From positions 1 to 36,787 of the forward strand of contig JALSKU010000202.1 in NCBI GenBank assembly GCA_026988685.1: a DNA stretch of 36,787 bases, given 5' to 3'. Each line of letters begins with the position of its first letter. Within the stretch, counting starts at the first letter, position 1. The translations under genes and the position numbers were made by a program. Below the pieces are notes generated by a model that saw only the letters and a program-made list of their open reading frames with translations, made no database searches and was not told the origin of the DNA. Positions 3,699-36,787 of this stretch are shown here, one piece after another. This DNA comes from Campylobacterales bacterium. GTDB taxonomy: Bacteria > Campylobacterota > Campylobacteria > Campylobacterales > JALSKU01.

Positions 3699-4358
3699 AT
3701 GGTGAAGATACTGATAGTTGAGGATGAAAAGGACATACTCTCTTTTTTAAAGCGTGGTTTTGAGGAAGAGGGCTATGTCGTTGATACCGCCGATAATGGT
3801 CAAGACGGAGAATATAAAATAGCGCTAAATCATTATGATATCATAATTTTAGACTGGATGCTACCTGAAAAAAGTGGTATTGAGATCTTGAAATGTATAA
3901 TAAAGATGGAAATAAAAACACCTGTTGTTCTCTTGACAGCAAAAGATGAAGTAAAAGATAAAGTCGAAGCTCTTAAGATAGGCGCCGATGACTATGTAAC
4001 AAAACCTTTTAGTTTTGAAGAGTTGGAAGCTAGGGTGGAGTCGCTATATAGAAGAAGTATATCCAAAGGAAGCAATACTATAGAGTTTCAAGATATCATT
4101 ATAGACATACCTTCAAAGCAAGTTACAAAAGCAGGAAGTATAGTAGAACTTTTGGCAAAAGAGTATGAACTACTTCTATTTTTGATAAAAAATAAAAACT
4201 GCTTTGTATCGGTTAATAAGATCTACGATGCGATTTGGGGCGATGAAGAGTTTATTAACAGCAATGTTATACAAGTTATCATATATAGGCTTAGAAAAAA
4301 ACCAGGGAAAGATCTTGTAAAAAGTTCCAGAGGGTTAGGCTATAAAATTGAACTTTAA
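3699..4358 (+). CDS. OmpR-family response regulator
   Basis: Receiver motifs ILIVEDE, LDWMLP, GADDYVTKPF; winged-helix C-terminus RLRKK..RGLGY. Confidence 0.92.
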   Translation: MVKILIVEDEKDILSFLKRGFEEEGYVVDTADNGQDGEYKIALNHYDIIILDWMLPEKSGIEILKCIIKMEIKTPVVLLTAKDEVKDKVEALKIGADDYVTKPFSFEELEARVESLYRRSISKGSNTIEFQDIIIDIPSKQVTKAGSIVELLAKEYELLLFLIKNKNCFVSVNKIYDAIWGDEEFINSNVIQVIIYRLRKKPGKDLVKSSRGLGYKIEL

Positions 4359-5676
4359 TAGTTTAAAAACGAAGAGTCTAGCGTGGTTTTTTATAAGCAT
4401 AGTGGCAGTTTTAGCTCTGTTTAATTTGCTTTTTTATATCTTTTTGGAAAAAAATAATGCCAAGATAACAGAGGCTGCACTTTTTGGTAAAGCCATGATA
4501 TTTAAAAAGGATATGAACAATTTTATAAAAAGTACGGTTATAGACAACAGACAATATCCTGAGTATGAAATAGCAATATTAAAACAAAAAAATGTTATAT
4601 CAAAGACAAAAAATTTTCCTAAAAAGTTACTGCAAAAGTATATAGATGCCAAAGAGCACTTTTTTATCTTTTCGTCTAAAAGCAAAAAAGGTGCACTATA
4701 TATACTTGATATCTCCAGCCCTTTTGACGGCCATATAGCTGTATATCAGCATGAGATAGATGAGAAAATAGAGTCTATTTTGGATATGATGTATCTGCTA
4801 AACCCTCTGCTTTTCTTGCTGCTTATGCTCATAGGAGCGAAGCTCATAGATAAAACAGCTAAACCCATAAAAGATATAACAGATAATGCGAAAAAAATAT
4901 CTATAGATAACTTTAATCACAATATCAATAAAAATTATAAAGAGAAAAGAGTTAAAGGAGCTTGTGGAAGCCTTTAACGAAATGATCGGCAGGATAGAAG
5001 ATGGCACAAAAAAATTAGAGAGGTTTAACAGTGATGTCTCTCACGAACTAAAGACTCCTATAACAGCCATAAAAGGAGAGATAGAGGTAACTCTAAAAAG
5101 AAAAAGGGAAGTTAAGGAGTACGAGGAGAGCCTAAGAAGCATAGATACTCAGATAGATAATATAAAAAATATAGTAGAAGATCTGCTTTTATTGAGTAAG
5201 TTTTCTAAAGATACGGTGCGTAAGACTTTTGAAAATTGTCAAGTTGATATGATCATTTTGGAAATAGTTGAAAACTTTAGAAAACTTGCGAAAGAAAAAG
5301 ATATAAAAATCATCATAAAGCAAATTGAGCCGGTAAATATGACAGCAAATGATCAAATGCTCAAAATATCCATATCCAACTTGATAGATAATGCCATCAA
5401 ATACTCAAAAGAGAGAAAAAAAGGGTGTATATATCACTATATAAGAAGGATAAAGTATATATAAAAGTTGAAGATGAGGGTATCGGAATAGAAAAAAAGA
5501 ATTTGCCATATTTGACAGATAGATTTTACAGAGTGGATGAGTCAAGAAGTAAAAAGATAAAAGGTTTTGGCTTGGGGCTTAGTATCGTAAAAAACTTCAT
5601 AGATCTTCATGGAGGAGAGATAAAGATCTCTTCAAAAAAAGGCAAAGGGACATCTATAACACTCTCTTTTGACTAA
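4348..5676 (+). pseudogene. Sensor histidine kinase split by two frameshifts
   Basis: ORFs 4348-4977 (TM/HAMP), 4964-5464 (SHELKTP H-box, NLIDNAIKYS) and 5425-5676 (DEGIGI, DRFYRVD, GFGLGLSIV) join into one kinase; shifts at the A4 run 4945-4948 and at GAGAGA/A7 around 5411-5424. Confidence 0.85.
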
Positions 5677-5807: not shown

Positions 5808-6425
5808 ATGGGTGAGATTAGAGATGCCAATAGGAGCAAAAAGAGTATCATAGTAGCAGCTACTAAGCTTTTTGCTAAAGATGGTTTTGACGGTGTAAGC
5901 GTTGATGCCATAGCAAAAGAGGCTGGGGTAAATAAAGCGATGCTCTACTACTACTATAAAAACAAATCAAAACTTTATGAAGTGGTAGTAGATATGGTTT
6001 TGGAAGATATTTATAAAACCGTGCTAGAAAAAAACTCTCAACATAAAAAACCTATAGATAAACTATACTCTTTTATCGAAACCTTTGCCAAATATGCTAA
6101 AGCCAATCCGCACCTCTCCTTTTTTATGTTAAATGAGTTGGCAAGTGATGGTAAAAAGTTGCCAAGAGATATGTTTTTGGGACTTAGAAAGATATTTGGA
6201 CTGCTAGTGGATATACTAAAAGAGGGAGAAAAAAAAGGGTGTTTTAAAAAAACAAAGCCTATCATAGTCCATTTTATGATAGTGGGTGCTATCAATCTCT
6301 TTATATCCACCAAAAATTTAAGAAAAAGCGTAGAGGATGAACTGGGTGCAGAGGTTTGCAACGAATGTAAGATAGATGAAGTTGCAAGATACTTATATGA
6401 CTACATAACCAAGGGGATTTCATGA
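5808..6425 (+). CDS. TetR/AcrR family regulator
   Basis: LFAKDGFDGVSVDAIAKEAGVNKAMLYYYYKNKSKLY HTH. Confidence 0.93.
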   Translation: MGEIRDANRSKKSIIVAATKLFAKDGFDGVSVDAIAKEAGVNKAMLYYYYKNKSKLYEVVVDMVLEDIYKTVLEKNSQHKKPIDKLYSFIETFAKYAKANPHLSFFMLNELASDGKKLPRDMFLGLRKIFGLLVDILKEGEKKGCFKKTKPIIVHFMIVGAINLFISTKNLRKSVEDELGAEVCNECKIDEVARYLYDYITKGIS

Positions 6426-7699
6426 AATATATAGCTATAATCATTACCGTTTTATCTTTTCAGATAAATTCATTCGCACTTAGCATGACTGACCTGTTTG
6501 AAGCACTGAAAAAACAGCCTGTATCCAAAGTGGATGCACTACAAGTCAGGGAGGCCAATGTAGGTGTAAAAAGTGCAAAAGATGCACTCTATCCTAAGTT
6601 ATATCTAATAGGCTCATACAATCACTATAACAGACCATCAAGCCTAAGACCTGTGCTTCCTACGGAAACCCCTACACTTTTGGCTGAAGACAAACCACTT
6701 CCTTTTAGCAAGGATATCACAAAGGTTGGAGTTGATCTTAATTTTCCTATTTTTGTCAAATCTTTATACACTATTAGAGATAAGGCAAAGCTTATAAAGT
6801 TATCTTCAAAACAAAAAAGCAGACTAAACCTCATCCAAAGAGAGGCTAAGATCTTAGGTGCCAATGCATCTTTGAACTATCTTGAGTATCTAAAGATAGC
6901 ACTAAATGAGAAGAGAAAGTCACTTCTTAAAATGAGGAAAGATATAGTTTTAAAGGTGGCTAACGGTAGAGCGGCTCCTGTGGCGCTAAACAAGATAGAC
7001 CAGAGTCTAAACAGTATAGATATCGCAAAAAACAAGATAGATCTAAGTAAAAATGAGATATCTTCACTTATCGAGACGCTAACCGGCATAAGAGTAGATA
7101 AGAGTATAGAGTTTTATCAGGCAAAAGAGATAAAAAAAGAGAGCATCTTTGCGCTCTTGCCGCTTAAAAATCTGCTAAAAGCCAAAAAAGTGGGACTCAA
7201 AGCTGCAAAAGAGGCGCTTTATCCGGCGCTTTTTTTAAATGCCAACTACTTTAAAAGCTATGCTGATGGCTACAATAACGACAAATCCATAACCACAGGC
7301 TTTGGAACTATAGGAGTTAAACTAGTGATGCCTCTGTATGACAGAAGCAAATATACTCACATCCAAAAAGCAAGAGTAGCGTATGAAAAAGAGAGAGCCA
7401 TATTGGCGAAAACAAAAAATGAACTTCTTGTAAAAGCAAAAGAGTTAGAAAATGATATAAACCTCTTAAAAAGAAGCGAAGAGCTAACCAAAAAAAGCAT
7501 AAAAAATCAAAAAGAGCTTTTAAAAGTTGCAAAAGTAGCTTTTAAAAATGAGCGAATGAGCGAAGAGGAGTATCTAAGATATGAAGATAAACTAAGTTCC
7601 CTAAGAGCAACTTTAGCTCAAGTAAAAGCAAAAAAATGGCAGGACTTAGCCCAGCTTGCCGTAATATACGGAAATGATTTGGAAGGAGTGGTAAGATGA
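6422..7699 (+). CDS. TolC-family outer membrane efflux protein
   Basis: Signal peptide, two ALYP repeats, coiled-coil helices; operon context; ATGA overlap. Confidence 0.85.
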   Translation: MKYIAIIITVLSFQINSFALSMTDLFEALKKQPVSKVDALQVREANVGVKSAKDALYPKLYLIGSYNHYNRPSSLRPVLPTETPTLLAEDKPLPFSKDITKVGVDLNFPIFVKSLYTIRDKAKLIKLSSKQKSRLNLIQREAKILGANASLNYLEYLKIALNEKRKSLLKMRKDIVLKVANGRAAPVALNKIDQSLNSIDIAKNKIDLSKNEISSLIETLTGIRVDKSIEFYQAKEIKKESIFALLPLKNLLKAKKVGLKAAKEALYPALFLNANYFKSYADGYNNDKSITTGFGTIGVKLVMPLYDRSKYTHIQKARVAYEKERAILAKTKNELLVKAKELENDINLLKRSEELTKKSIKNQKELLKVAKVAFKNERMSEEEYLRYEDKLSSLRATLAQVKAKKWQDLAQLAVIYGNDLEGVVR

Positions 7700-27541: not shown

Positions 27542-28516
27542 ATGGCAAAAAATGACTTGATAAGCGGAAATATTTGGGAAGAGTACTCCAACACGGTTCA
27601 AGAGAGGATGAACAATCCTCAAAACATGGGAGAGATAACTGAAGAGCAGGCAAAAGAGCTTGGCGGAGAGCTTATAGTGGCTGACTTTGGAGCTGAGAGC
27701 TGTGGTGATGCAGTAAGGTTATACTGGGTGGTTGACCCCAAAACTGACAAGATATTAGAAGCGAAGTTTAAGAGCTTTGGGTGTGGCACGGCAATAGCCA
27801 GTAGTGACACAATGGTAGAACTTTGCAAAGGTAAAACAGTAGATGAAGCGGTAAAGATAACCAATATCGATGTGGAAAAAGCAATGAGAGATACCCCTGA
27901 GGTCCCAGCGGTTCCGCCACAAAAGATGCACTGCTCTGTTATGGCTTATGATGTTATAAAAAGAGCTGCCGCTCAGTATAAAGGGGTGGATGAGAGCAGT
28001 TTTGAAGATGAGATCATAGTTTGTGAGTGTGCAAGAGTCAGTCTCGGGACTATAAAAGAGGTTATAAAATTAAATGACTTAAAAACCGTCGAAGAGATAA
28101 CCGACTACACAAAAGCCGGAGCATTTTGTAAGAGCTGCATCAAGCCGGGAGGCCACGAAGAGAGGGAGTATTATCTTGTTGATATACTTGCTCAAACAAG
28201 AGCCGAGATGGAGGCCGAAAGGCTAAGTCAAAGCGAAGCTAGCGGTGAAGAGATACCTTTTAACCAAAAAACAGTTATACAAAAGTTAAAGTCTATAGAA
28301 GAGATCATTGATGAACATATAAGGCCTATGCTTGTGATGGACGGCGGAAACCTTGAGATACTTGATATCAAAGAAAATGAGGGTTTTACGGATGTTTATA
28401 TAAGATACCTAGGGGCTTGCAGTGGATGTGCAAGTAGTGCGACAGGGACTTTATACGCGATAGAAGCCATACTAAAAGAGAAGCTTGACGAGAGTATAAG
28501 GGTCTTGCCGGTTTAG
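27542..28516 (+). CDS. nifU: Three-domain Fe-S scaffold NifU
   Basis: SCGDA..FGCG..KMHCS; CEC...CKSC 2Fe-2S domain; MDGG..GACSGC Nfu domain. Confidence 0.95.
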   Translation: MAKNDLISGNIWEEYSNTVQERMNNPQNMGEITEEQAKELGGELIVADFGAESCGDAVRLYWVVDPKTDKILEAKFKSFGCGTAIASSDTMVELCKGKTVDEAVKITNIDVEKAMRDTPEVPAVPPQKMHCSVMAYDVIKRAAAQYKGVDESSFEDEIIVCECARVSLGTIKEVIKLNDLKTVEEITDYTKAGAFCKSCIKPGGHEEREYYLVDILAQTRAEMEAERLSQSEASGEEIPFNQKTVIQKLKSIEEIIDEHIRPMLVMDGGNLEILDIKENEGFTDVYIRYLGACSGCASSATGTLYAIEAILKEKLDESIRVLPV

Positions 28517-28517
28517 T

Positions 28518-29471
28518 ATGATAAAAAGGTGTTGCACTCTACTTTGTGTGGGGTTTTTGTCATATTTGAGCGCCGGGGACCTCTCATATATAGACAAAGC
28601 CCACCAAAGCTTGAGCGAATGGATATATAACACTTCCAATAAGATAGACCTCTTTTTCTTAAGATATAAGCAAAGTGATATAAAAAGCACTGATTCATAC
28701 ATAGATACATCGTTTGATACATACTATGAAGAGTATCAAAAAACTCTTTACAGATACAATATAAAAGTGAGACTTAGGCTGCCAAGAACCGGAAAGCGCC
28801 TACATCTTGTTTTTAAAGATTACAAGAACAGCATATCAAGCGACAGACAAAACAGTTCAAATATATCTGATAGTGTAGGAAACAATAGTTATTTGTTGGG
28901 AGTTGCTCTCGATAAATTTAAAAGTAGATATCTTCATCTAAGAGCTGGGAGTGGAGTAAGGTTTCATGGTATCTCTCCTGATGCTTATATATCACTACAA
29001 GTCAGCAAGCGCTTTTTCACCGGATCCAAGTGGCAGTTTGAGCTAAGCTCAACGGCAAGATATTTTGCAAAAAGAAAAAATGAAGACACTATCAGTTTTA
29101 TCTCTTCAAAAGTGTTAGATAGTTATCTAAAATTCACCATATTAAACAATTACCACTATCAACAAAAAACATCCGATAAACAGGAGGTGGTAAATGCTCT
29201 TATTCTAGACCAGTACCTAAACTCAAAAAAAGGTGTAAGCTACAGCGCCTCCATCTATAGCTCCGGCGATAGCAAGGAAGCCTTCAAACTCCATTACTAT
29301 CTTTTGCAACTACTATATAAAAGATACTTCTACAAAAATTATGCCTATTATGAGATAACTCCCGGTATCATCTTTAGAGACAGCAGAGCTTTTAAACCCG
29401 ATTTTAAAGTAATGTTCAAAGTAGGTCTCTTTTTTGGAAAGAAAGCAACTAAAGGCTATAGAAAGTTTTAG
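28518..29471 (+). CDS. Hypothetical exported, probably outer-membrane beta-barrel protein
   Basis: Signal-like N-terminus, alternating aromatic beta strands, aromatic-rich C-terminus. Confidence 0.55.
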   Translation: MIKRCCTLLCVGFLSYLSAGDLSYIDKAHQSLSEWIYNTSNKIDLFFLRYKQSDIKSTDSYIDTSFDTYYEEYQKTLYRYNIKVRLRLPRTGKRLHLVFKDYKNSISSDRQNSSNISDSVGNNSYLLGVALDKFKSRYLHLRAGSGVRFHGISPDAYISLQVSKRFFTGSKWQFELSSTARYFAKRKNEDTISFISSKVLDSYLKFTILNNYHYQQKTSDKQEVVNALILDQYLNSKKGVSYSASIYSSGDSKEAFKLHYYLLQLLYKRYFYKNYAYYEITPGIIFRDSRAFKPDFKVMFKVGLFFGKKATKGYRKF

Positions 29472-29498
29472 TTAAAATAAGATAATAACCTGCTACCC

Positions 29499-29759
29499 CT
29501 AGTAATGAAATCTACACTGTGCAATTACTATCAAATCTTCAACAACTTTATATACCAGTCTATGTTCTGATGTAATTCTTCTAGAATAATATCCGTTAAA
29601 GTTCTCTTTTAGTCTCTCAGGTTTGCCTATCCCGTTTTTATCATATGGATTTCGCTTGATATCTTTTATCAAAAGATTTATCCTTTTAAAGATATTCCTA
29701 TCATTCTTTTGCCAGTATTGGTAATCCTCCCACCCTTCATCTGCGAAGCCTACGATCAT
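29499..29759 (-). CDS. yoeB: Txe/YoeB family toxin
   Basis: WEDYQYWQ..D, GIGKPE.LK, SRRIT.EHRLVY, QCRFHY. Confidence 0.95.
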   Translation of the reverse strand: MIVGFADEGWEDYQYWQKNDRNIFKRINLLIKDIKRNPYDKNGIGKPERLKENFNGYYSRRITSEHRLVYKVVEDLIVIAQCRFHY

Positions 29760-30007
29760 ATATCAAGATCTTTTTTGACAAACTTAGAGTTTTCGATCTG
29801 TTCAACAGCATTTAAAAGTCTATCTCTGTTATTTTTTGAAGACAATAAATAAATCGTCTCTTTCATTGAATTGTATTCATCTTGAGATATTAAAACTACT
29901 GATTGTTTATCCTTGGTTGTGATAATGAATTCATCAAAATTATCACATGCTTGATTGATAATCTCCCTCAAATTATTTCTAGCTTGAGAATAAAGTAGCG
30001 CTTGCAC
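29756..30007 (-). CDS. yefM: Phd/YefM family antitoxin
   Basis: YSQARNNL, VVLIS.DEYNSMKETIYLLSS..N..RL; extended -10 TGATATAAT on the - strand at 30036-30044. Confidence 0.93.
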   Translation of the reverse strand: MQALLYSQARNNLREIINQACDNFDEFIITTKDKQSVVLISQDEYNSMKETIYLLSSKNNRDRLLNAVEQIENSKFVKKDLDI

Positions 30008-30116
30008 AATAAATCCTTTTTGTCAAGATATTGTCATTATATCAGATTTATTACTAAAGAGTCAACCCTAAAAATACTGAATGGCTACTTGGCTACTAAG
30101 AGTAAAGCTTCGAGCC

Positions 30117-30248
30117 CTATCTTTTTAATTCATGCTCAAAAAAATCTCTAATCTTTTTTGTATCTATAACTTCAATTGGCTCTAAAAACTCAATATTTTC
30201 ATCCTCAATATACAATAAAGCCGCAGCAAATAGCTTAAAGTTGATCAC
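30117..30248 (-). pseudogene. Orphan 3' fragment 1 of an AbiEii-type nucleotidyltransferase
   Basis: Translates VINFKLFAAALLYIEDENIEFLEPIEVIDTKKIRDFFEHELKR*, matching the C-terminus of 35353-35988. Confidence 0.85.
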
Positions 30249-30252
30249 TTGT

Positions 30253-30278
30253 AGTTAAAGGTAAAGCTCTAACCCTAA
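30253..30278 (+). repeat. Recurrent ~26-bp junction motif (related copies at 30094-30120, 31705-31728, 33002-33027; weaker at 30054-30071, 34285-34310)
   Basis: AGTTAAAGGTAAAGCTCTAACCCTAA vs AGTCAAGAGTAAATCTCTGACCCTAA (33002-33027), 21/26 identical. Confidence 0.65.
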
Positions 30279-31234
30279 TATACTACTGTACTACTGCGGT
30301 CTATCATAACCCCCTTTTTTCCTAAAACGACCAGTATAGTTTTTGCTATAGTTTTTGCTTCAAGCCACAATGACCAGTTTTTTATATAGTAAAGGTCATA
30401 CATTAGCTTCTGTTTAGTGTCTTCCATGTTCTGCCCATAAGGGTAGTTTACCTGCGCCCATCCTGTTATGCCCGGACGAACAAGGTGGCGTGTGTTGTAG
30501 TAGGGGATCTCTTTTTCATAATTTTGTACAAGTATGTTCCATTCTGCTCTAGGACATACTAAGTGCATATCACCTTTAAAAATATTTAAAATCTGTGGAA
30601 TCTCGTCTATCCTTGTTCTTCTCATGATCTTACCAAAAGGAAAAATACGGCTATCATTTTCTCTGGTATATGGGTCATGGTGTGAGTTAGTATGCATACT
30701 TCTAAATTTATAGCATACAAACTCTTTTCCTTGCAGACCAACTCTTCTTTGGGCAAAAAGTACAGGTCCCGGCGACTCTTTCTTGATCCTGTAACAGGCA
30801 TATATCATTACAGGAGAAGTTACAAGCCCAATGATGATGGATCCGATGTAGTCTATAACTCTCTTAAAAAAATAGCTATACAAACTATATGCTCGAATCT
30901 CTTCTAGAAAACCAAGCTCCTAGTGCGAGTCAGGTATGTAACATTTTCTTAGATACCTCTCCATTAATGTTTCTATAGATATTATATCAAGAGTGTATTT
31001 ATGCTCTTTAACATGAAGATTTGTAAGATATTTAATGATCTCATCTCCTACTTTTGCTTTTGTGTTTAAAACAAAAAGGGAAGAGGGGTGTTTTTTTACT
31101 GCTGCAGACAACTCTTTAAGAACTTCGCTTTCCTCTCTATCTCTATACTTTATCTGAATTATTGTAGGAGATATTTTTTTAAGCTGATTTAGCTCAAACT
31201 CTTTAAATTTATGTTTTCTACCGAGGATGATCAT
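30275..31234 (-). pseudogene. Sugar transferase (priming undecaprenyl-phosphate glycosyltransferase) with in-frame TAG
   Basis: ORFs 30920-31234 and 30275-30883 share a frame separated by TAG at 30920-30922; FKRVID, KFRSM, RIDEIPQ, RPGITGWAQV, YDLYYI; conserved VGPR reads VCPR. Confidence 0.85.
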
Positions 31235-31479
31235 TGTTCACAGGCACCGGTTTTGATGTTTTCTCTGTTTTTTTCTAATGTTTTTTTACCAATTCCTTTG
31301 ACTTTTGTAAGCTCATCTGCTGTTATAAAACAATGTTTCTCTCTATAGCTTATGATGGCTTCAGCTTTTTTGACAACGATTCCTTTCAGGGTTGTTAGCT
31401 CTTTGGCAGGCGCATTGTTAATGTCCACTACGCCAAACACTAAGCTAAATCCAACTAACAATAGAGTAAAGATTTTCAT
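31231..31479 (-). CDS. comEA: Short periplasmic ComEA/ComE-like HhH DNA-binding protein, copy 1 (first GIG motif degenerate)
   Basis: Signal peptide, VDINNA..KEL..LKGIV.KKAEAII.YR, ELTKVKGIGKK; 82 aa. Confidence 0.85.
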   Translation of the reverse strand: MKIFTLLLVGFSLVFGVVDINNAPAKELTTLKGIVVKKAEAIISYREKHCFITADELTKVKGIGKKTLEKNRENIKTGACEQ

Positions 31480-31549
31480 TCGCACCTCTATTTTTTAAAA
31501 CAAAGTGTAACAACTTCTGACTTAATGTTGGTTAAAAAGAAGTTCTATA

Positions 31550-31672
31550 TTTTTTTATTTTATCTTCAAAGAAACCTCTAATCTTTTTTGTATCGATAAC
31601 TTCAAGTGGTTCTAAATACTCAATATTTTTATCCTCATTATCATCAATACACAATAAAACTACAGCAAATAG
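31550..31672 (-). pseudogene. Orphan 3' fragment 2 of an AbiEii-type nucleotidyltransferase
   Basis: Translates LFAVVLLCIDDNEDKNIEYLEPLEVIDTKKIRGFFEDKIKK. Confidence 0.82.
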
Positions 31673-31795
31673 TTAAATTCCAAATACAGTATCATTGAAA
31701 TCACAAGAAAGTAAAGCTTTGATTCTATCACTTTACCTTTTATTAAAGACAATCATAGTAAAATACATTAAACGATATATCTTTGGGATAGTAAA

Positions 31796-32995
31796 ATGAA
31801 AAATATTTTAGATTTAGCAGAACGGCTATATAGATTAAAGAGAAACCAAAAACTACCACTTTATAAAAGATTTCTTTTTAAAGATTTACTCAACTCAAAA
31901 GCAAAGATAACTGGGCTTTATGGAAGTAGAGGTGTTGGCAAAACTACACTTTTATTGCAGGTTTTAAAAGAGTTAGATTATGAAGAAAAGCTTTATATCT
32001 CTTGCGATCATCCTATCTTTTATGAAGTCTCTTTATTTGATTTTGTAGATAACTACTCTAAATATGGTGGCGAAGTAATTGTCATAGATGAGATACACAA
32101 AATCAAAGATTTTCAGCAGCAAATAAAGCTAATATATGACTTTTTAGATATAAAACTGTTTTTTAGTGGCAGCAGTGCAGTAGAGATTACAAATGCAGAT
32201 TTTAGTAGAAGATACTCTATGTATTATTTGCCTATTTTATCTTTAAGAGAGTATTTAGAGATGAGCCAAAATATTCAGCTAAATAGCTACTCTTTAGATA
32301 AAATCTTAAATTCACATACAAAAATAGCAGATGAAATCATTGATGAATTGCCAAACAAAAAGATCTTAAGGTTTTTTAAAGAGTTTATAGATGTAGGGGT
32401 CTATCCGTTTTATTTTGAAGATGAAACAAAATACACAGATAAGATTCAGCAAAATATCAATACTATTCTCTATACCGATTTGGTAAATGTGGTATCAATT
32501 AGTGGTGATAAAATAGAGTCATTAAAAAAGCTTTTATTAAATATATGCACCTCTAATCCTTTAGAACTAAGCATTGAAAAGTTAGCTAAACTAACAGGTA
32601 TCACAAAACCAACACTATATAAATATATAGAGTATTTAAGTAGAGCAGAGTTGTTACATCATATCATTTATGAAGCAAAACGATTTAAAAATATGCAAAA
32701 ACCTGATAAGTTATATCTGAATAATACAAACCTTTTTAATGCACTATGTTTAAATAAAAATATGGGCACAATAAGAGAGACTCTCTTTGTGAGTATGCTA
32801 TATAAACAGCATATCATAAACTATACCTCCAAAGGTGACTTTTTGGTAGATGAAAAATATATCTTCGAAATAGGCGGTAAAAATAAAAGCTTTAGACAGA
32901 TAAAAGATCTACCAAACTCTTTCGTTGTATCTGATGATATGGAGATAGGCTTTGGCAATAAAGTGCCTCTTTGGTTATTTGGATTTTTGTATTGA
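31796..32995 (+). CDS. AAA+ ATP-binding protein (AAA_14-type, with C-terminal nuclease-fold-like domain), copy 1
   Basis: GSRGVGKTT, VIDEIHK, FSGSS, KPDKLYL.N.N, RET.F, GDFLVD..FEIGGK. Confidence 0.85.
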   Translation: MKNILDLAERLYRLKRNQKLPLYKRFLFKDLLNSKAKITGLYGSRGVGKTTLLLQVLKELDYEEKLYISCDHPIFYEVSLFDFVDNYSKYGGEVIVIDEIHKIKDFQQQIKLIYDFLDIKLFFSGSSAVEITNADFSRRYSMYYLPILSLREYLEMSQNIQLNSYSLDKILNSHTKIADEIIDELPNKKILRFFKEFIDVGVYPFYFEDETKYTDKIQQNINTILYTDLVNVVSISGDKIESLKKLLLNICTSNPLELSIEKLAKLTGITKPTLYKYIEYLSRAELLHHIIYEAKRFKNMQKPDKLYLNNTNLFNALCLNKNMGTIRETLFVSMLYKQHIINYTSKGDFLVDEKYIFEIGGKNKSFRQIKDLPNSFVVSDDMEIGFGNKVPLWLFGFLY

Positions 32996-33004
32996 GTTTT
33001 TAGT
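32837..33004 (+). repeat. 168-bp identical direct repeat (second copy at 34120-34287)
   Basis: Base-for-base identity from GACTTTTTGGTAG through the stop codon to TTTTTAGT. Confidence 0.95.
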
Positions 33005-33096
33005 CAAGAGTAAATCTCTGACCCTAAGTTAATTGACATACACATCAAATTTAGATATACTTTTCTTGATCCTAATATCAAATATAAGAGGATAAA

Positions 33097-34278
33097 ATGA
33101 TAGATAAAATAAGAGAGTTACAAAAACTTTTGCTCAATAAAGTAAAAACAAAATACAAAAGATACTTTTTTTATAAAATAAATTTTGATAGGCTAACAGG
33201 TATCATTGGTGCAAGAGGTGCCGGGAAAACAACTTTTTTATTGCAATACCTAAAAGAGCATCCTCTACCTATGTCTAAAAAGTTATATATAAGTGCGGAT
33301 TCCATCAAGATAGATTCACTGTTTGATATCGCTAAGAGCTTCGAGAGAGAGGGAGGAGAGCTACTTATTATAGATGAGATACACAAATTTACAGGCTTTG
33401 AAAATGAACTAAAGAAGATATATGATTTTTTAGAGTTAGAAGTTGTTTTTAGTGGTAGCAGCGCATTAAAAATAGATAATTCAAAAGCGGATTTAAGCCG
33501 AAGAGTTGTTGTTTACGAGATAGAAGGACTGAGTTTTAGAGAGTTTTTAGAGTTGAAAAATGATATCAAGATTGATACTTACTCATTGGAGGATATTTTA
33601 GTAAATCATATTGATATTGCCTATGACCTCTCAAAATATCATACACCAAAGATATTTCAAGAGTATCTGCAATATGGCTACTATCCATTCTATTTTGATA
33701 AATATTCAAATTACCAAATAAAACTAAATGAAACCATAAACACAGTTTTAGAAGTTGATATACCTTCGATTTTCAACATAGAATATCAAAATATTAAAAA
33801 CTTAAAAAAACTTCTTCTAATTCTTTGCCAAAGTGTCCCATATACTCCAAATATCAATGAACTGTTAAACAAACTTGATATGGGGCAAGATTATAGGACA
33901 TTGTATAGATATTTAGACTATCTTCATAAAGCAAAAATCATCACACTAATCCGCCCTAAAACAAAAGGAGACAATATTTTTGCAAAACCGGATAAGATAT
34001 ATTTTAACAATACAAATCTCCACTTTGCCTATTGTGATGCGCCAAATATAGGAACTATAAGGGAAGTTTTTTTTAAATCTATGATTTTTGAACATAAGAC
34101 TACAATACCAAAAAAAGGAGACTTTTTGGTAGATGAAAAATATATCTTCGAAATAGGCGGTAAAAATAAAAGCTTTAGACAGATAAAAGATCTACCAAAC
34201 TCTTTCGTTGTATCTGATGATATGGAGATAGGCTTTGGCAATAAAGTGCCTCTTTGGTTATTTGGATTTTTGTATTGA
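33097..34278 (+). CDS. AAA+ ATP-binding protein (AAA_14-type), copy 2
   Basis: GARGAGKTT, IIDEIHK, FSGSS, KPDKIYF.N.N; C-terminal ~54 aa identical to copy 1. Confidence 0.85.
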   Translation: MIDKIRELQKLLLNKVKTKYKRYFFYKINFDRLTGIIGARGAGKTTFLLQYLKEHPLPMSKKLYISADSIKIDSLFDIAKSFEREGGELLIIDEIHKFTGFENELKKIYDFLELEVVFSGSSALKIDNSKADLSRRVVVYEIEGLSFREFLELKNDIKIDTYSLEDILVNHIDIAYDLSKYHTPKIFQEYLQYGYYPFYFDKYSNYQIKLNETINTVLEVDIPSIFNIEYQNIKNLKKLLLILCQSVPYTPNINELLNKLDMGQDYRTLYRYLDYLHKAKIITLIRPKTKGDNIFAKPDKIYFNNTNLHFAYCDAPNIGTIREVFFKSMIFEHKTTIPKKGDFLVDEKYIFEIGGKNKSFRQIKDLPNSFVVSDDMEIGFGNKVPLWLFGFLY

Positions 34279-34305
34279 GTTTTTAGTTAAAAGTAGATTT
34301 TCCAA

Positions 34306-34336
34306 CCTGTCTTGCTCCACTTATCAGCAAGACAGG
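34306..34336. terminator. 11-bp perfect hairpin between convergent genes
   Basis: CCTGTCTTGCT-CCACTTATC-AGCAAGACAGG. Confidence 0.6.
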
Positions 34337-34355
34337 AAAATTTATGTACCAAGTT

Positions 34356-34637
34356 TTACGCTGAACTAACACGAACTCCTACTTTTTCAATATGCTCAAG
34401 TAGATTTTTGTTTTTTATTTTTTTGCGATTGACTACATCGAAAAAATAAGGTAAGTTCGTCTCTTCATTAAGTAGGTAGGAAAGCTTTTTCTCCCCTTCA
34501 TCAACTGCAATATCAATATCGCTTCCCTTTTTGTAATTCCCCTTTGCTCTTGATCCAAAGATGATAGCGTTATTGACATTGTTATCACGAAAAACTTTTT
34601 TTATAGTTTCTAATTCTTCTGGTTTTAATCCAAACAT
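34356..34637 (-). CDS. Minimal nucleotidyltransferase (MNT) antitoxin
   Basis: IFGSRAKGNYKKGSDIDIA (GSx10DxD). Confidence 0.9.
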   Translation of the reverse strand: MFGLKPEELETIKKVFRDNNVNNAIIFGSRAKGNYKKGSDIDIAVDEGEKKLSYLLNEETNLPYFFDVVNRKKIKNKNLLEHIEKVGVRVSSA

Positions 34638-35029
34638 GATAAACCTTTAAACTTCTCATAAAGATTTTGCAACAGTTGAAAATATTGCTCTTTTATCATG
34701 CAATATATTGCATCTGATTGTTCTTGATCGTATATATGCACCGTTGCATTTCTATCCATAAGTGCATCAAGCCAAAGCGATCCTTCATCTATTAGCTCTA
34801 TCGAATACGCTATTTTAATTGTTTCTCGCGGAGACTTTACATCGTATCCCATATAAGACAAATAGTCTTTCATCAACTTCCATGAGAGTTCAAAAGTGAT
34901 CTCAAAAAATTGTATAACTCCAGCCTTTTCGGTGACAGAAGGCTCCTCAATCAACAAAGATTGCTCTAAAAGCAAAAAAGACTTTTCAAAATTTTCAAAT
35001 CGCTGTATATATCGAATATCTTCTTTCAC
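34625..35029 (-). CDS. HEPN / HI0074-family nucleotidyltransferase substrate-binding protein (toxin)
   Basis: GVIQFFEITFELSWK.MKDYL, SPRE.IK, RNATVHIY (Rx4HxY). Confidence 0.9.
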   Translation of the reverse strand: MKEDIRYIQRFENFEKSFLLLEQSLLIEEPSVTEKAGVIQFFEITFELSWKLMKDYLSYMGYDVKSPRETIKIAYSIELIDEGSLWLDALMDRNATVHIYDQEQSDAIYCMIKEQYFQLLQNLYEKFKGLSCLD

Positions 35030-35038
35030 AATACTAAA

Positions 35039-35287
35039 CTACTTTTTACAAGCCCCAGCATGAAGATTTTTCCTATTTTTCTCTAAAAACTTTTTGCCTA
35101 TCCCTTTTACTTTTACTATCTCATCAACATTTTTAAAACAGTGCGCCTTTCTATATGCTACAATCGCTTCAGCTTTTTTTGCTCCAATTCCTTTAAGTGA
35201 GCTAAGCTCTTTTGCACTTGCACTATTAATATCAACGGCACTAAACGCCAAACTAAATGCAACAAGCAACACCCCTAAAATCTTCAT
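35039..35287 (-). CDS. comEA: Short periplasmic ComEA/ComE-like protein, copy 2
   Basis: MKILGVLLVAFSLAFSAVDINSAS.KEL..LKGIG.KKAEAIV.YR; SD AAAGGTG. Confidence 0.9.
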   Translation of the reverse strand: MKILGVLLVAFSLAFSAVDINSASAKELSSLKGIGAKKAEAIVAYRKAHCFKNVDEIVKVKGIGKKFLEKNRKNLHAGACKK

Positions 35288-35291
35288 CTTT

Positions 35292-35352
35292 ACACCTTTG
35301 AAATAAAATCTACTCAATTATAATTGCTTGTTTCTTAAGGGTGGCTAAATTT
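35292..35352 (-). promoter_or_regulatory. 61-bp comEA promoter/leader, identical to 36575-36635
   Basis: - strand TTTAGCCACCCTTAAG...TATAAT...AAAGGTGT; a similar TTTAACCAACATTAAG lies upstream of copy 1. Confidence 0.75.
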
Positions 35353-35988
35353 TTACTTTTTTAAATCATTTAATTTCTCTTCAAAAAAATCTCTTATTTT
35401 TTTTATATCAATTACTTCGATTGGTTCTAAATACTCAATTTTTTCATCCTCTATATCATCAATATACAACAATGCCACAACAAATAACTTAAAGTTGATC
35501 CCTTCAACAATATTCAAACTATAAGAAAACATCTCTTTTATACTCATCGATTTTTTAGCTAAAAAATACAAATCATAATAATCCCTAAATTTTGCTCTTA
35601 AAAAAAGTACATTTACTTTCATGGCAGCGAGAGAATCTAAAGATGCCAAGTTAAATTTTTCTATTTTTTTAGGCTTTAAAAAATCCCACTTTGCATTAAA
35701 AAAAGTAACTTTTACCCCATCAATCAACAAATCAATTTGCTCATCGGTCTGGTTTAAAATTTCTTTATTTTGAAAATCTTTCAAATACTCAAATATCTCT
35801 TTTTTATCAAAACTATCTTCATAAGTAAAAAAATCTAAATCTTCACTTTTGCGATGGCATAGATGAAGTGTCAAAGCACTACCACCTACTAAAACATACT
35901 TTTCTAAAAAAGCACAATCCTCAATCATTTTCAACAAAAGAGTTTTAGTTTTAGGAAGTAAGTAGTCTAAGTTTTTCAAATCTTGCAT
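35353..35988 (-). CDS. AbiEii/AbiGii-family nucleotidyltransferase (type IV TA toxin-like)
   Basis: LVGGSAL.L...HRKSEDLDFF, AAMK, RAKFRDYYDLY. Confidence 0.88.
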   Translation of the reverse strand: MQDLKNLDYLLPKTKTLLLKMIEDCAFLEKYVLVGGSALTLHLCHRKSEDLDFFTYEDSFDKKEIFEYLKDFQNKEILNQTDEQIDLLIDGVKVTFFNAKWDFLKPKKIEKFNLASLDSLAAMKVNVLFLRAKFRDYYDLYFLAKKSMSIKEMFSYSLNIVEGINFKLFVVALLYIDDIEDEKIEYLEPIEVIDIKKIRDFFEEKLNDLKK

Positions 35989-36304
35989 TTTTTATTCCCT
36001 TAAAATAATCACTCTCCACATCCATGCCAAAAAAGACTCTTGCAAGCATTACATTTAATTTTATAAACCTTTTATCGCTCTTTAGCCTCTCTTCCCAAAC
36101 CTCTTTGACAACCTGCTTACCAAACAATCTAAACCCAAGCACAATTTCATCAAAATCACCATATTTTAGCAGATACTCTATCGTTAAACGCTCACCAATT
36201 TCTTCAAAACTTATGTTTTTGCTATAGCTCCAAAAAATTCCTCTATCTCTTAGCTTATTAAAGAGTTGTGCTTTTTGCATATATTTATCTTGTGTATTAT
36301 TCAT
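35951..36304 (-). CDS. Small AbiEii partner (DUF6922-like, candidate antitoxin)
   Basis: IFWSY...IEYLLKYGDFDE pattern; overlaps the AbiEii start. Confidence 0.6.
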   Translation of the reverse strand: MNNTQDKYMQKAQLFNKLRDRGIFWSYSKNISFEEIGERLTIEYLLKYGDFDEIVLGFRLFGKQVVKEVWEERLKSDKRFIKLNVMLARVFFGMDVESDYFKGIKNARFEKLRLLTS

Positions 36305-36321
36305 AAATTCTTTCTTGCTTA

Positions 36322-36570
36322 CTACTTTTTACAATCCCCAGCTTTAAGATTAGCTTTGTTTTTTTCTAAAAATTTTTTGCCTATCCCTTTTACTTTTACT
36401 ATCCCATCAACACTTTTAAAACAGTGTGCTTTTCTATACGCTACAATCGCTTCAGCCTTTTTTACTCCAATGCCTTTAAGAGAACTAAGCTCTTTTGCAC
36501 TTGCACTATTAATATCAACAGCACTAAAAGCCAAACTAAACGCCATAAGCAATAACCCTAAAATCTTCAT
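36322..36570 (-). CDS. comEA: Short periplasmic ComEA/ComE-like protein, copy 3
   Basis: Near-identical protein to copy 2, many silent differences. Confidence 0.9.
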   Translation of the reverse strand: MKILGLLLMAFSLAFSAVDINSASAKELSSLKGIGVKKAEAIVAYRKAHCFKSVDGIVKVKGIGKKFLEKNKANLKAGDCKK

Positions 36571-36787
36571 TGTCACACCTTTGAAATAAAATCTACTCAA
36601 TTATAATTGCTTGTTTCTTAAGGGTGGCTAAATTTGTGTTTTTTTAGATTATTCAACCTTTAAAAAAGATGATTTTTGATAGATAAAAAGCAAAAAAAGT
36701 TGTTATTAGATTCCTTTTTTACCAACTACAACCATGATAGTTTTGTATATAATTTTAAATTCGAGAATTAAACTCCAATGCTTTATG

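Follow-up and report, generated by a model that had tools for sequence, protein, structure and literature searches.

The DNA analysed here, called the window, is the whole of contig C202 (36,787 nucleotides, nt) of an uncultured Campylobacterales bacterium (GenBank GCA_026988685.1, contig JALSKU010000202.1). It carries an islet of toxin-antitoxin (TA) and candidate-defence genes around three copies of comEA, the gene of a small putative DNA-uptake receptor, at the edge of a surface-glycan gene region. The islet has probably been built by recombination, is decaying and is still variable; the side of comEA on which the TA pairs stand would be a "safe harbour", and pairs having no promoter of their own would be read from comEA. 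The islet differs between samples by a deletion and by the presence or absence of a cassette, and a like arrangement recurs beside comEA in several families of the order. As far as sequence matches tell, its modules were shown to be separate pieces, each found in other genomes in other contexts.

The islet spans positions 36600 to 29499 and is read on the minus strand, with two AAA_14 ATPase genes running on the plus strand. Its features, with profile scores in bits and lengths in amino acids (aa) or as open reading frames (ORFs), are as follows.

29499..29759, minus strand: yoeB toxin gene (86 aa); Pfam YoeB_toxin (PF06769), 121 bits against a cut-off of 27
29756..30007, minus strand: yefM antitoxin gene (83 aa); Pfam PhdYeFM_antitox (PF02604), 69 bits against 29.8
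30036..30065, minus strand: promoter-like site of yefM-yoeB; TTGACT, 18-nt spacer, TATAAT, upstream TG; 11 of 12 consensus positions
30118..30250, minus strand: AbiEii 3' remnant "d", by sequence identity to the AbiEii 3' end
30275..31234, minus strand: polyprenyl-phosphate sugar phosphotransferase gene, broken by a TAG; Bac_transf, 204 bits on the 202-aa 3' ORF
31231..31485, minus strand: comEA1 (84-aa ORF); HHH_3 61 bits; TIGR00426 72.2 bits against 53.1
31548..31677, minus strand: AbiEii 3' remnant "c", part of a 420-nt repeated block
31796..32995, plus strand: AAA_14/DUF4143 ATPase 1 (399 aa); AAA_14 77 bits; PADLOC PDC-S01, E 2.5e-27
33097..34278, plus strand: AAA_14/DUF4143 ATPase 2 (393 aa); AAA_14 83 bits; PADLOC PDC-S01, E 1.5e-26
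34114..34298 and 32831..33015, plus strand: ATPase 3' repeat, 185 nt, 98% identity
34356..34637, minus strand: minimal nucleotidyltransferase (MNT, 93 aa); Polbeta (PF18765) 50 bits; NTP_transf_2 40 bits
34625..35029, minus strand: HEPN-clan NTase_sub_bind protein (134 aa); PF08780 125 bits; TIGR01987 110 bits against 55.8
35039..35317, minus strand: comEA2 (92-aa ORF); HHH_3 70 bits; TIGR00426 73.4 bits against 53.1
35292..35352, with an identical copy at 36575..36635, minus strand: comEA promoter and 5' untranslated region (5'UTR) block of 61 nt with a TATAAT-like box
35353..35988, minus strand: intact gene of an AbiEii-family nucleotidyltransferase toxin (211 aa); Pfam AbiEii (PF08843), 50.4 bits against 22.5
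35951..36304, minus strand: 117-aa partner of AbiEii, predicted to be all-helical; no named family
36322..36600, minus strand: comEA3 (92-aa ORF); HHH_3 66 bits; TIGR00426 above cut-off

This gene content and order had been given by an earlier sequence-only reading and were borne out by the ORF list and the Pfam and NCBIfam profiles. The same is true of three TA types lying in about 7 kb with no mobility gene in view: neither an integrase nor a transposase was found among the 43 ORFs of the contig scanned with Pfam, 27 of them in positions 1-29471. The recurrence of a unit in which an AbiEii 3' end is followed by comEA was also confirmed, as a block present twice: 420 nt around comEA1 are 69% identical to the AbiEii 3' end, the intergenic stretch and comEA2. 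A vestige of the AbiEii 3' end, about 20 nt long, lies upstream of comEA3.

All three comEA copies match TIGR00426 and HHH_3 (61-70 bits) above cut-off and have a hydrophobic N-terminal segment visible in their translations. The true starts are likely internal ATGs, giving about 82 aa. Campylobacter jejuni Cj0011c is a small periplasmic ComEA, and the proteins of the islet resemble it in their size of about 80 aa, the signal-like N-terminal segment and the ComEA helix-hairpin-helix region; unlike Cj0011c, they are encoded in three copies within 5.4 kb, and their role in DNA uptake is putative. No further small comEA was found elsewhere in the assembly. comEA2 and comEA3 share 89% DNA identity over 336 nt and 88% protein identity, and the comEA1 protein is 64-65% identical to both. 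Nonsynonymous (dN) and synonymous (dS) divergence between comEA2 and comEA3 amounts to 0.062 and 0.42 (dN/dS about 0.15); comEA1 differs from either of them by a dN of 0.23, with dS saturated. These are old copies, and purifying selection acts on them. At 61 nt, the longest run shared exactly by the comEA2 and comEA3 regions falls in the upstream block with the TATAAT-like box and not in the coding part, and exact matches with comEA1 outside the promoter block reach at most 18 nt. The earlier proposal that comEA serves as a recombination anchor is not shown, given the age of the copies and the shortness of the exact matches with comEA1.

The TA genes stand close behind comEA. The comEA3 stop is followed after 17 nt by the gene of the 117-aa protein and the comEA2 stop after 9 nt by the HEPN-like gene, while at comEA1 the stop codon and the ATG of the next gene, the sugar transferase, overlap. 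No terminator-like site was found after any of the three copies, the 9- and 17-nt gaps included, and no promoter-like site of its own was found for the HEPN-like/MNT pair. Both TA pairs directly behind comEA have partners with no recognisable DNA-binding domain. Because comEA has a promoter and no terminator-like site, the AbiEii and HEPN-like/MNT pairs would be read from comEA; such read-through is plausible and would fit the promoter, terminator and partner-domain findings together. The statement that TA pairs start 9-17 nt after comEA stops holds for these two pairs but not for yefM-yoeB, which does not follow comEA. Likewise, transcription of the TA genes from comEA promoters is plausible where the gaps have no terminator-like site and the 61-nt block is shared, but yefM-yoeB has a strong promoter-like site.

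Variation of the islet was seen by comparison with Logan contigs, of which those of X1 may come from the source sample and those of X2 and X3 come from another study. X1 contigs tile positions 28052-32521 with no mismatch and break at the AbiEii remnants, at 30182-30211 and 31663-31692; X1 records 3 and 4 and X2 record 11 span the remnant junctions. Single contigs of X2 and X3 run from yoeB to the end of the transferase gene, through the HEPN-like gene, comEA2 and the AbiEii end (X3 record 23), and from comEA2 to comEA3 (X2 record 15). The last of these does not contain positions 35619-36054. This 436-nt deletion inside the AbiE pair is bounded by the 8-nt microhomology TACATTTA, leaves codons 1-84 of the 117-aa gene joined in frame to the last 88 AbiEii codons and takes away the N-terminal nucleotidyltransferase part of AbiEii. 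It shows, as a live example, a way in which AbiEii 3' remnants can form.

One contig of X6, also from another study, joins 29495 to 30055 via 36 other letters, so that the site is empty of yefM-yoeB; the borders of this empty site are those where yefM-yoeB homology ends in five other genomes. A second X6 contig, about 90% identical, joins 29476 to 30311, and there the transferase gene abuts the 317-aa ORF. By these variants, the segment of remnant "d" and yefM-yoeB was inserted in this lineage. X1 and X3 have a joint from 30183 to 35783 that perhaps belongs to a strain with an intact AbiEii gene ahead of yefM-yoeB. Joints in the ATPase region with low sides (21-36 letters) were not used. An expanding and contracting array with repeats as recombination substrates had been proposed from the sequence; this is supported by the deletion, the empty site, the ATPase tract, a direct repeat in another family (G281, below) and the lack of the islet in three congeners, and recombination as the origin of the islet has partial support.

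The three AbiEii 3' ends (the intact gene and remnants "c" and "d") are 73-82% alike, remnant "d" having 73-80% identity to the other two. The remnants start at the equivalents of AbiEii residues of about 162 ("d") and 168 ("c"), that is, within about 6 codons of one another, and each retains a short ORF (43 or 40 aa).

The islet was also compared with relatives. In the congeners G009, G003 and G007, nifS, nifU, a 318-aa ORF and a response-regulator gene follow one another with no islet, and G009 has a single comEA with no TA pair directly behind it. Conservation of the array as a whole was rejected: a DNA search of 40 relatives gave single modules only, mostly on separate contigs. In G338, a member of another family, a 4.3-kb contig holds an ATPase fragment, an AAA_14 ATPase gene, yefM-yoeB, a glycosyltransferase gene and comEA. 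Its DNA identity to the window is 86% in the 5' region of ATPase 2 and 78% in both yefM-yoeB and comEA; for nifS-nifU the identity is 71% to G338 and 78% to congeners. A comEA tree of 82 columns, weak in resolution, groups the three copies with comEA of the genus of G338 (support 84/88) and not with congeners. With identities to G338 above that of nifS-nifU and a tree in agreement, the modules are part of a pool shared by horizontal transfer. The AbiE pair has a 77% identical counterpart in G033, at a locus with no adjoining comEA. The yefM-yoeB module (29496-30046) occurs at 74-79% DNA identity in five other genomes in differing contexts, and G036 has a gene with 81% DNA identity to ATPase 2.

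In a sample of 401 genomes of the order, comEA2 has matches in 255, mostly one or two in each. Two samples of comEA loci were scanned for TA families. In the first, of 23 loci at the best comEA matches, the nearest 119 of 188 ORFs within 3 kb were covered; in the second, of 60 further loci, 150 of 152 ORFs of 55-200 aa within 2 kb. TA families were found near comEA at 7 of the 23 and 10 of the 60 loci, i.e., at 17 of 83. Control flanks at the loci of the first sample, 3-7 kb away from comEA (145.8 kb, with 60 of 64 small ORFs scanned and the four dropped ORFs lying on an rRNA operon) gave one ParE above cut-off and one Phd-like match below it. The congener G002 has the order yefM-yoeB, comEA, MNT-HEPN, galE; G378 has yefM-yoeB, comEA, pglB; and G087 has Phd-ParE, a glycosyltransferase gene, comEA, MNT-HepT and a PglF-like gene. 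The seven TA-bearing loci of the first sample are completed by G338, G281, G371 and G272. An MNT gene directly after comEA on the same strand, at distances from an 11-nt overlap to 87 nt, was found in G244, G167, G067, G308, G002 (30 nt) and G087 (14 nt). The MNTs linked to comEA fall into at least five sequence clusters and have three different HEPN-type partner families, and this variety implies that insertion after comEA happened several times. In the genomes checked, NTP_transf_2 matches number 3-8 per genome.

In G281, which belongs to another family, comEA itself is repeated with its cargo (locus L029, contig G281:C30, 4476-9823): a [Uma2-comEA] direct repeat of 959 nt at 92% identity has an MNT-HepT pair between its copies and a VapBC-type pair after the second. 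Extra comEA fragments nearby adjoin a PIN_3 gene. At locus L047 (G272:C7), positions 6060-7192, a short ATP-dependent DNA ligase gene (DNA_ligase_OB_2 and DNA_ligase_A_M) lies 53 nt after comEA and is followed by an MNT pair; a ligase beside a DNA receptor gene may be relevant to DNA uptake. In G370, G376 and G382, two to four copies of a longer comEA-like ORF (178-207 aa) with identical scores lie in distant places, which suggests a repeated element carrying a ComEA-like gene.

The favoured explanation runs as follows. Imported or duplicated segments, each with an [AbiEii 3' end - promoter - comEA] junction, would have been added serially by general and illegitimate recombination, no dedicated recombinase being involved. 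Deletion at microhomologies would then have left the AbiEii remnants and the broken transferase gene, and gene conversion between repeats would patch the array. The space directly 3' of comEA would be the safe harbour for TA pairs whose antitoxin has no recognisable DNA-binding domain, and yefM-yoeB would bring a promoter of its own. All three comEA copies would be kept as working genes, and co-expression of toxins with comEA would be a by-product and not a designed coupling. A stronger version is possible but doubtful: in the Campylobacterales-type relatives sampled, TA modules with neither a promoter nor a DNA-binding antitoxin, MNT/HEPN pairs above all, would be captured and expressed by preference on the terminator-less 3' side of comEA, TA expression would be wired to transcription of the uptake receptor, and the array would be the record of a three-fold capture. 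In this version the AbiEii remnants may also be kept as still coding an antitoxin-binding peptide or as part of the comEA promoter.

Several observations weigh against the favoured explanation. The truncation points of remnants "c" and "d" in AbiEii nearly coincide, which random decay does not predict. The comEA loci are related to one another, and three of the six cases of an MNT directly after comEA come from one genus. The loci were picked as best comEA matches, and their ORFs were scanned in part (small ones only in the second sample and the control). Many comEA loci lie in glycan-synthesis regions (pgi, galU, GT4, PglB, PglF-like), and TA pairs also occur between glycosylation genes, e.g., at L032; the neighbouring glycan locus, and not comEA, may be the real hotspot. 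YoeB was rejected as a general neighbour of comEA: in the search of the 401 genomes, the two were within 2 kb in only 4 of 130 YoeB-bearing genomes among the matches listed (150 of 204 for YoeB and about 150 of 363 for comEA). comEA1 is as distant from comEA2 and comEA3 (69% at the DNA level) as comEAs of different families are from each other, so the order of duplication and import cannot be told. Finally, the contigs listed do not bridge ATPase 1, ATPase 2 and MNT, where a 168-nt exact repeat lies; this stretch is the least secure part of the array.

Among the other explanations, a selected coupling, in which TA genes were placed under comEA promoters to police incoming DNA or limit competence and the comEA copies are specialised paralogues, is unlikely. 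It would account for the 9- and 17-nt gaps with no terminator-like site, for the purifying selection on all comEA copies, for a 61-nt promoter/5'UTR block better conserved than the coding sequence (dS 0.42), and for MNTs of at least five clusters directly behind comEA in several families. A precedent exists in Haemophilus influenzae, where the TA operon toxTA is described as competence-regulated (PMC6957337) and is co-expressed with DNA-uptake genes, the CRP-S/Sxy promoter link having been shown experimentally; the link here consists of physical adjacency to comEA and the lack of a terminator-like site. However, 66 of the 83 comEA loci have no nearby TA gene, and where TA genes occur their families differ and some stand upstream of comEA, on the opposite strand or behind another gene. 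G009, G003 and G007 carry no islet at the site, and the single comEA of G009 has no TA directly behind it. Selfish hitch-hiking is, if anything, still harder to credit. Here TA pairs would spread by natural transformation with comEA as the homologous arm, an extra comEA being left by each import; single-crossover or homology-facilitated illegitimate recombination is the route proposed. Direct repeats of [X-comEA] do flank TA cargo both in the window and in G281 (959 nt, 92%), and the comEA2/3 type and the yefM-yoeB type are closer to G338 than housekeeping genes are. Against this, comEA shares 66-79% DNA identity across families, exact runs between the comEA1 and comEA2 regions reach 18 nt, and most junctions look illegitimate, with microhomology or filler letters. 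By the requirements of RecA, the comEA divergence is too great for efficient homologous pairing.

It is very improbable that the array is an artefact in which the metagenome assembler strung together strain variants of one locus, each with comEA and differing cargo. The assembly is of the metagenome type with 232 contigs, the window ends inside the region, X1 contigs break at the remnants, and ATPase 1, ATPase 2 and MNT, with their 168-nt exact repeat, are unbridged. Yet the other junctions are bridged by X2 record 15, X3 record 23, X1 records 3 and 4 and X2 record 11. Moreover, the window has two [AbiEii end - comEA] junctions with 69% identity to each other, which an assembler cannot create, and the copies have few exact words of assembler length in common outside the ATPase tract and the promoter block. 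Mis-assembly, named beforehand as what would refute the array, is probably not its cause, given the contigs from the other study and this pair of junctions. A site-specific cassette system, integron-like or with a recombinase encoded past the contig end, is the least probable of all; the cassette-like layout and the room for a recombinase beyond 36787 speak for it. No integrase is among the 43 ORFs, and attC-like inverted repeats do not recur, three weak inverted pairs being all that was found. No motif is common to the cassette borders, which differ between relatives, and two genes run on the other strand. Like the islet, chromosomal integrons of Vibrio and defence/TA islands pack several types of TA into a few kb, and they gain and lose genes in the manner of cassettes. 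Unlike the Vibrio integron TA cassettes, the islet has mixed orientation, and the integron test found neither IntI nor recurring attC-like repeats within the contig.

The pair behind comEA3 differs from its known relatives. AbiE (AbiEi/AbiEii) is an abortive-infection TA system described as type IV. As in AbiE, the islet has an AbiEii-family nucleotidyltransferase toxin with an overlapping upstream gene (38 nt): PADLOC AbiEii models match the toxin gene, and it has 1267 homologues at E<=1e-10, some of them named AbiEii/AbiGii. Unlike in AbiE, the partner is a 117-aa protein, all-helical in the predicted model (mean pLDDT, the predicted local distance difference test, 86.9), with no AbiEi or winged helix-turn-helix match. 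This protein has no Pfam match at E<=10 and no NCBIfam match at E<=0.1; its 172 homologues are mostly about 109 aa long and unnamed. Fold searches gave no usable match (Foldseek against PDB, best E 3.5; VIA-align against 48,161 chains, best Z 5.5), and AbiEi is not named among their results. The earlier label "DUF6922-like" (PF21956) has no support from the profile hidden Markov model at E<=10; as a lead only, 16% of the members of the neighbour cluster of this protein in the ESM Atlas (score 0.92) carry PF21956.

A complex of AbiEii with the 117-aa partner was predicted with a score of 0.81, against 0.01 for the best control. Among solved complexes, 116 of 157 came up to the mark for such scores; among mismatched pairs, 2 of 215 did. 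These counts are rough here, own alignments having been used. The runs share at least 97% of contacts, with a partner pLDDT of at least 85, and the contacts fall on AbiEii residues 165-177 and 203-210. The 117-aa protein is thus predicted to bind the C-terminal end of AbiEii directly. The remnant starts coincide with the beginning of this predicted contact surface. Having an AbiEii-family toxin but a partner other than AbiEi, the pair is not classed as canonical AbiE.

HepT/MntA and HI0073/HI0074 are HEPN-MNT pairs of type VII TA. The pair behind comEA2 is like them in its overlapping MNT and HEPN-clan genes (13 nt) and unlike them in that the HEPN-like gene comes first, no promoter-like site of its own was found and the cut-off of the MntA equivalog (NF047752) is not reached (32.4 bits against 60). 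The "HEPN" label given earlier holds at the level of the clan and is corrected to the NTase_sub_bind/HI0074 type. MNT also matches PADLOC PDC-S09 (E 1.9e-9). The PADLOC check suggested earlier was run and gave matches to the candidate systems PDC-S01 and PDC-S09 and to AbiEii models only. A defence role is thus indicated solely by these candidate models and the AbiEii models, and defence function does not follow from a match to a candidate system.

At their 3' ends the two ATPase genes have an exact run of 168 nt in common, and they are about 50% identical in the remainder (43-72% per 100-nt block), which points to recent gene conversion of the 3' tract. ATPase 2 has a promoter-like site at 33033-33061. 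The C-terminal region is the best conserved part also in paralogues on contigs C47, C85, C137 and C139. The yefM and yoeB genes overlap by 4 nt. The sugar-transferase pseudogene seen in the earlier reading is real: its 104-aa 5' ORF and 202-aa 3' ORF together align with one 309-aa ORF of G027, and the gene is of this 309-aa type with a single in-frame TAG at 30920-30922.

The assembly comprises 232 contigs (1.98 Mb) and is rated 97.8% complete; public runs containing the stretch are labelled hydrothermal vent metagenome, and named homologues of window proteins come from Campylobacterota. Positions 1-29471 hold ordinary chromosomal genes, among them those for a chemoreceptor, a two-component system, an RND efflux pump, ferritin/rubrerythrin, ClpP (clpP) and trigger factor, together with fliI, nifS, nifU and a conserved 317-aa ORF. 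The last of these (28518-29471) has no Pfam or NCBIfam match, and its position directly after nifU is kept in three congeners. At 4348-5464, directly behind a response-regulator gene, a 209-aa ORF with no Pfam match overlaps a 166-aa ORF with a HisKA domain only; the two may be a split or unusual sensor kinase. On the contig, ARAGORN found no tRNA gene and Rfam gave no match at gathering scores.

The contig stops 187 nt upstream of comEA3 on the minus strand, and the array may continue past position 36787; no overlap with the window end was found among the other contigs of the assembly. An X1 joint from 36787 to 30387, with 39 letters on the shorter side, hints at transferase-like sequence past the contig end, where a further transferase-like gene and possibly another unit may lie. 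Of the response regulator behind the 318-aa ORF of congeners, this genome gave only a 55%-identical, probably paralogous copy in another context. The comEA site of G009 has no syntenic counterpart in this genome.

In kind, the locus comes nearest to the minimal mobile elements of Neisseria and to general TA hotspots. TA-type cargo is common in the Neisseria elements, and the islet resembles them in having variable content at a fixed site with no mobility genes. They are described as islets between conserved flanks in naturally competent Neisseria, and their exchange is ascribed to transformation and homologous recombination (PMC3787668). Unlike there, the flank gene comEA is present here in three diverged copies inside the site, the junctions look illegitimate and carry toxin-gene remnants along, and competence is inferred from genes. 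For the tandem lpl paralogues of Staphylococcus aureus, PMC2568036 gives as the evolving unit an ORF 3' end, the intergenic stretch and the 5' end of the next ORF. The repeated unit of the islet (AbiEii 3' end, promoter, comEA) is similarly offset from gene borders, but unlike in the lpl cluster it combines two unrelated genes, of which the upstream one is for the most part a dead remnant, and the cargo differs between units. A literature search at the title and abstract level found no description of comEA-linked TA arrays or of comEA multiplication in Campylobacterota. Two features seem new: comEA has been multiplied together with cargo, and pairs of the MNT/HEPN type that are unrelated to one another stand directly behind comEA time and again in different families.

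TA and defence hotspots are known, and their cause is rarely clear where integrase and tRNA genes are missing. Here the gene concerned is comEA, which has a promoter and no terminator-like site: unrelated TA pairs, of the MNT/HEPN type and others, follow it repeatedly in several families of vent and sulfur-cycle bacteria, and in two genomes comEA itself has been multiplied along with the cargo. Coupling of DNA uptake to toxin/defence expression, suggested by the sequence-only reading, is a possibility. If the link to comEA is false, this is a variable islet of the ordinary kind in a metagenome-assembled genome. If it is true, the islet would be a concrete and testable instance of addiction modules capturing a promoter in naturally competent bacteria, and new TA partners, such as the 117-aa partner of AbiEii, could be sought at such sites.

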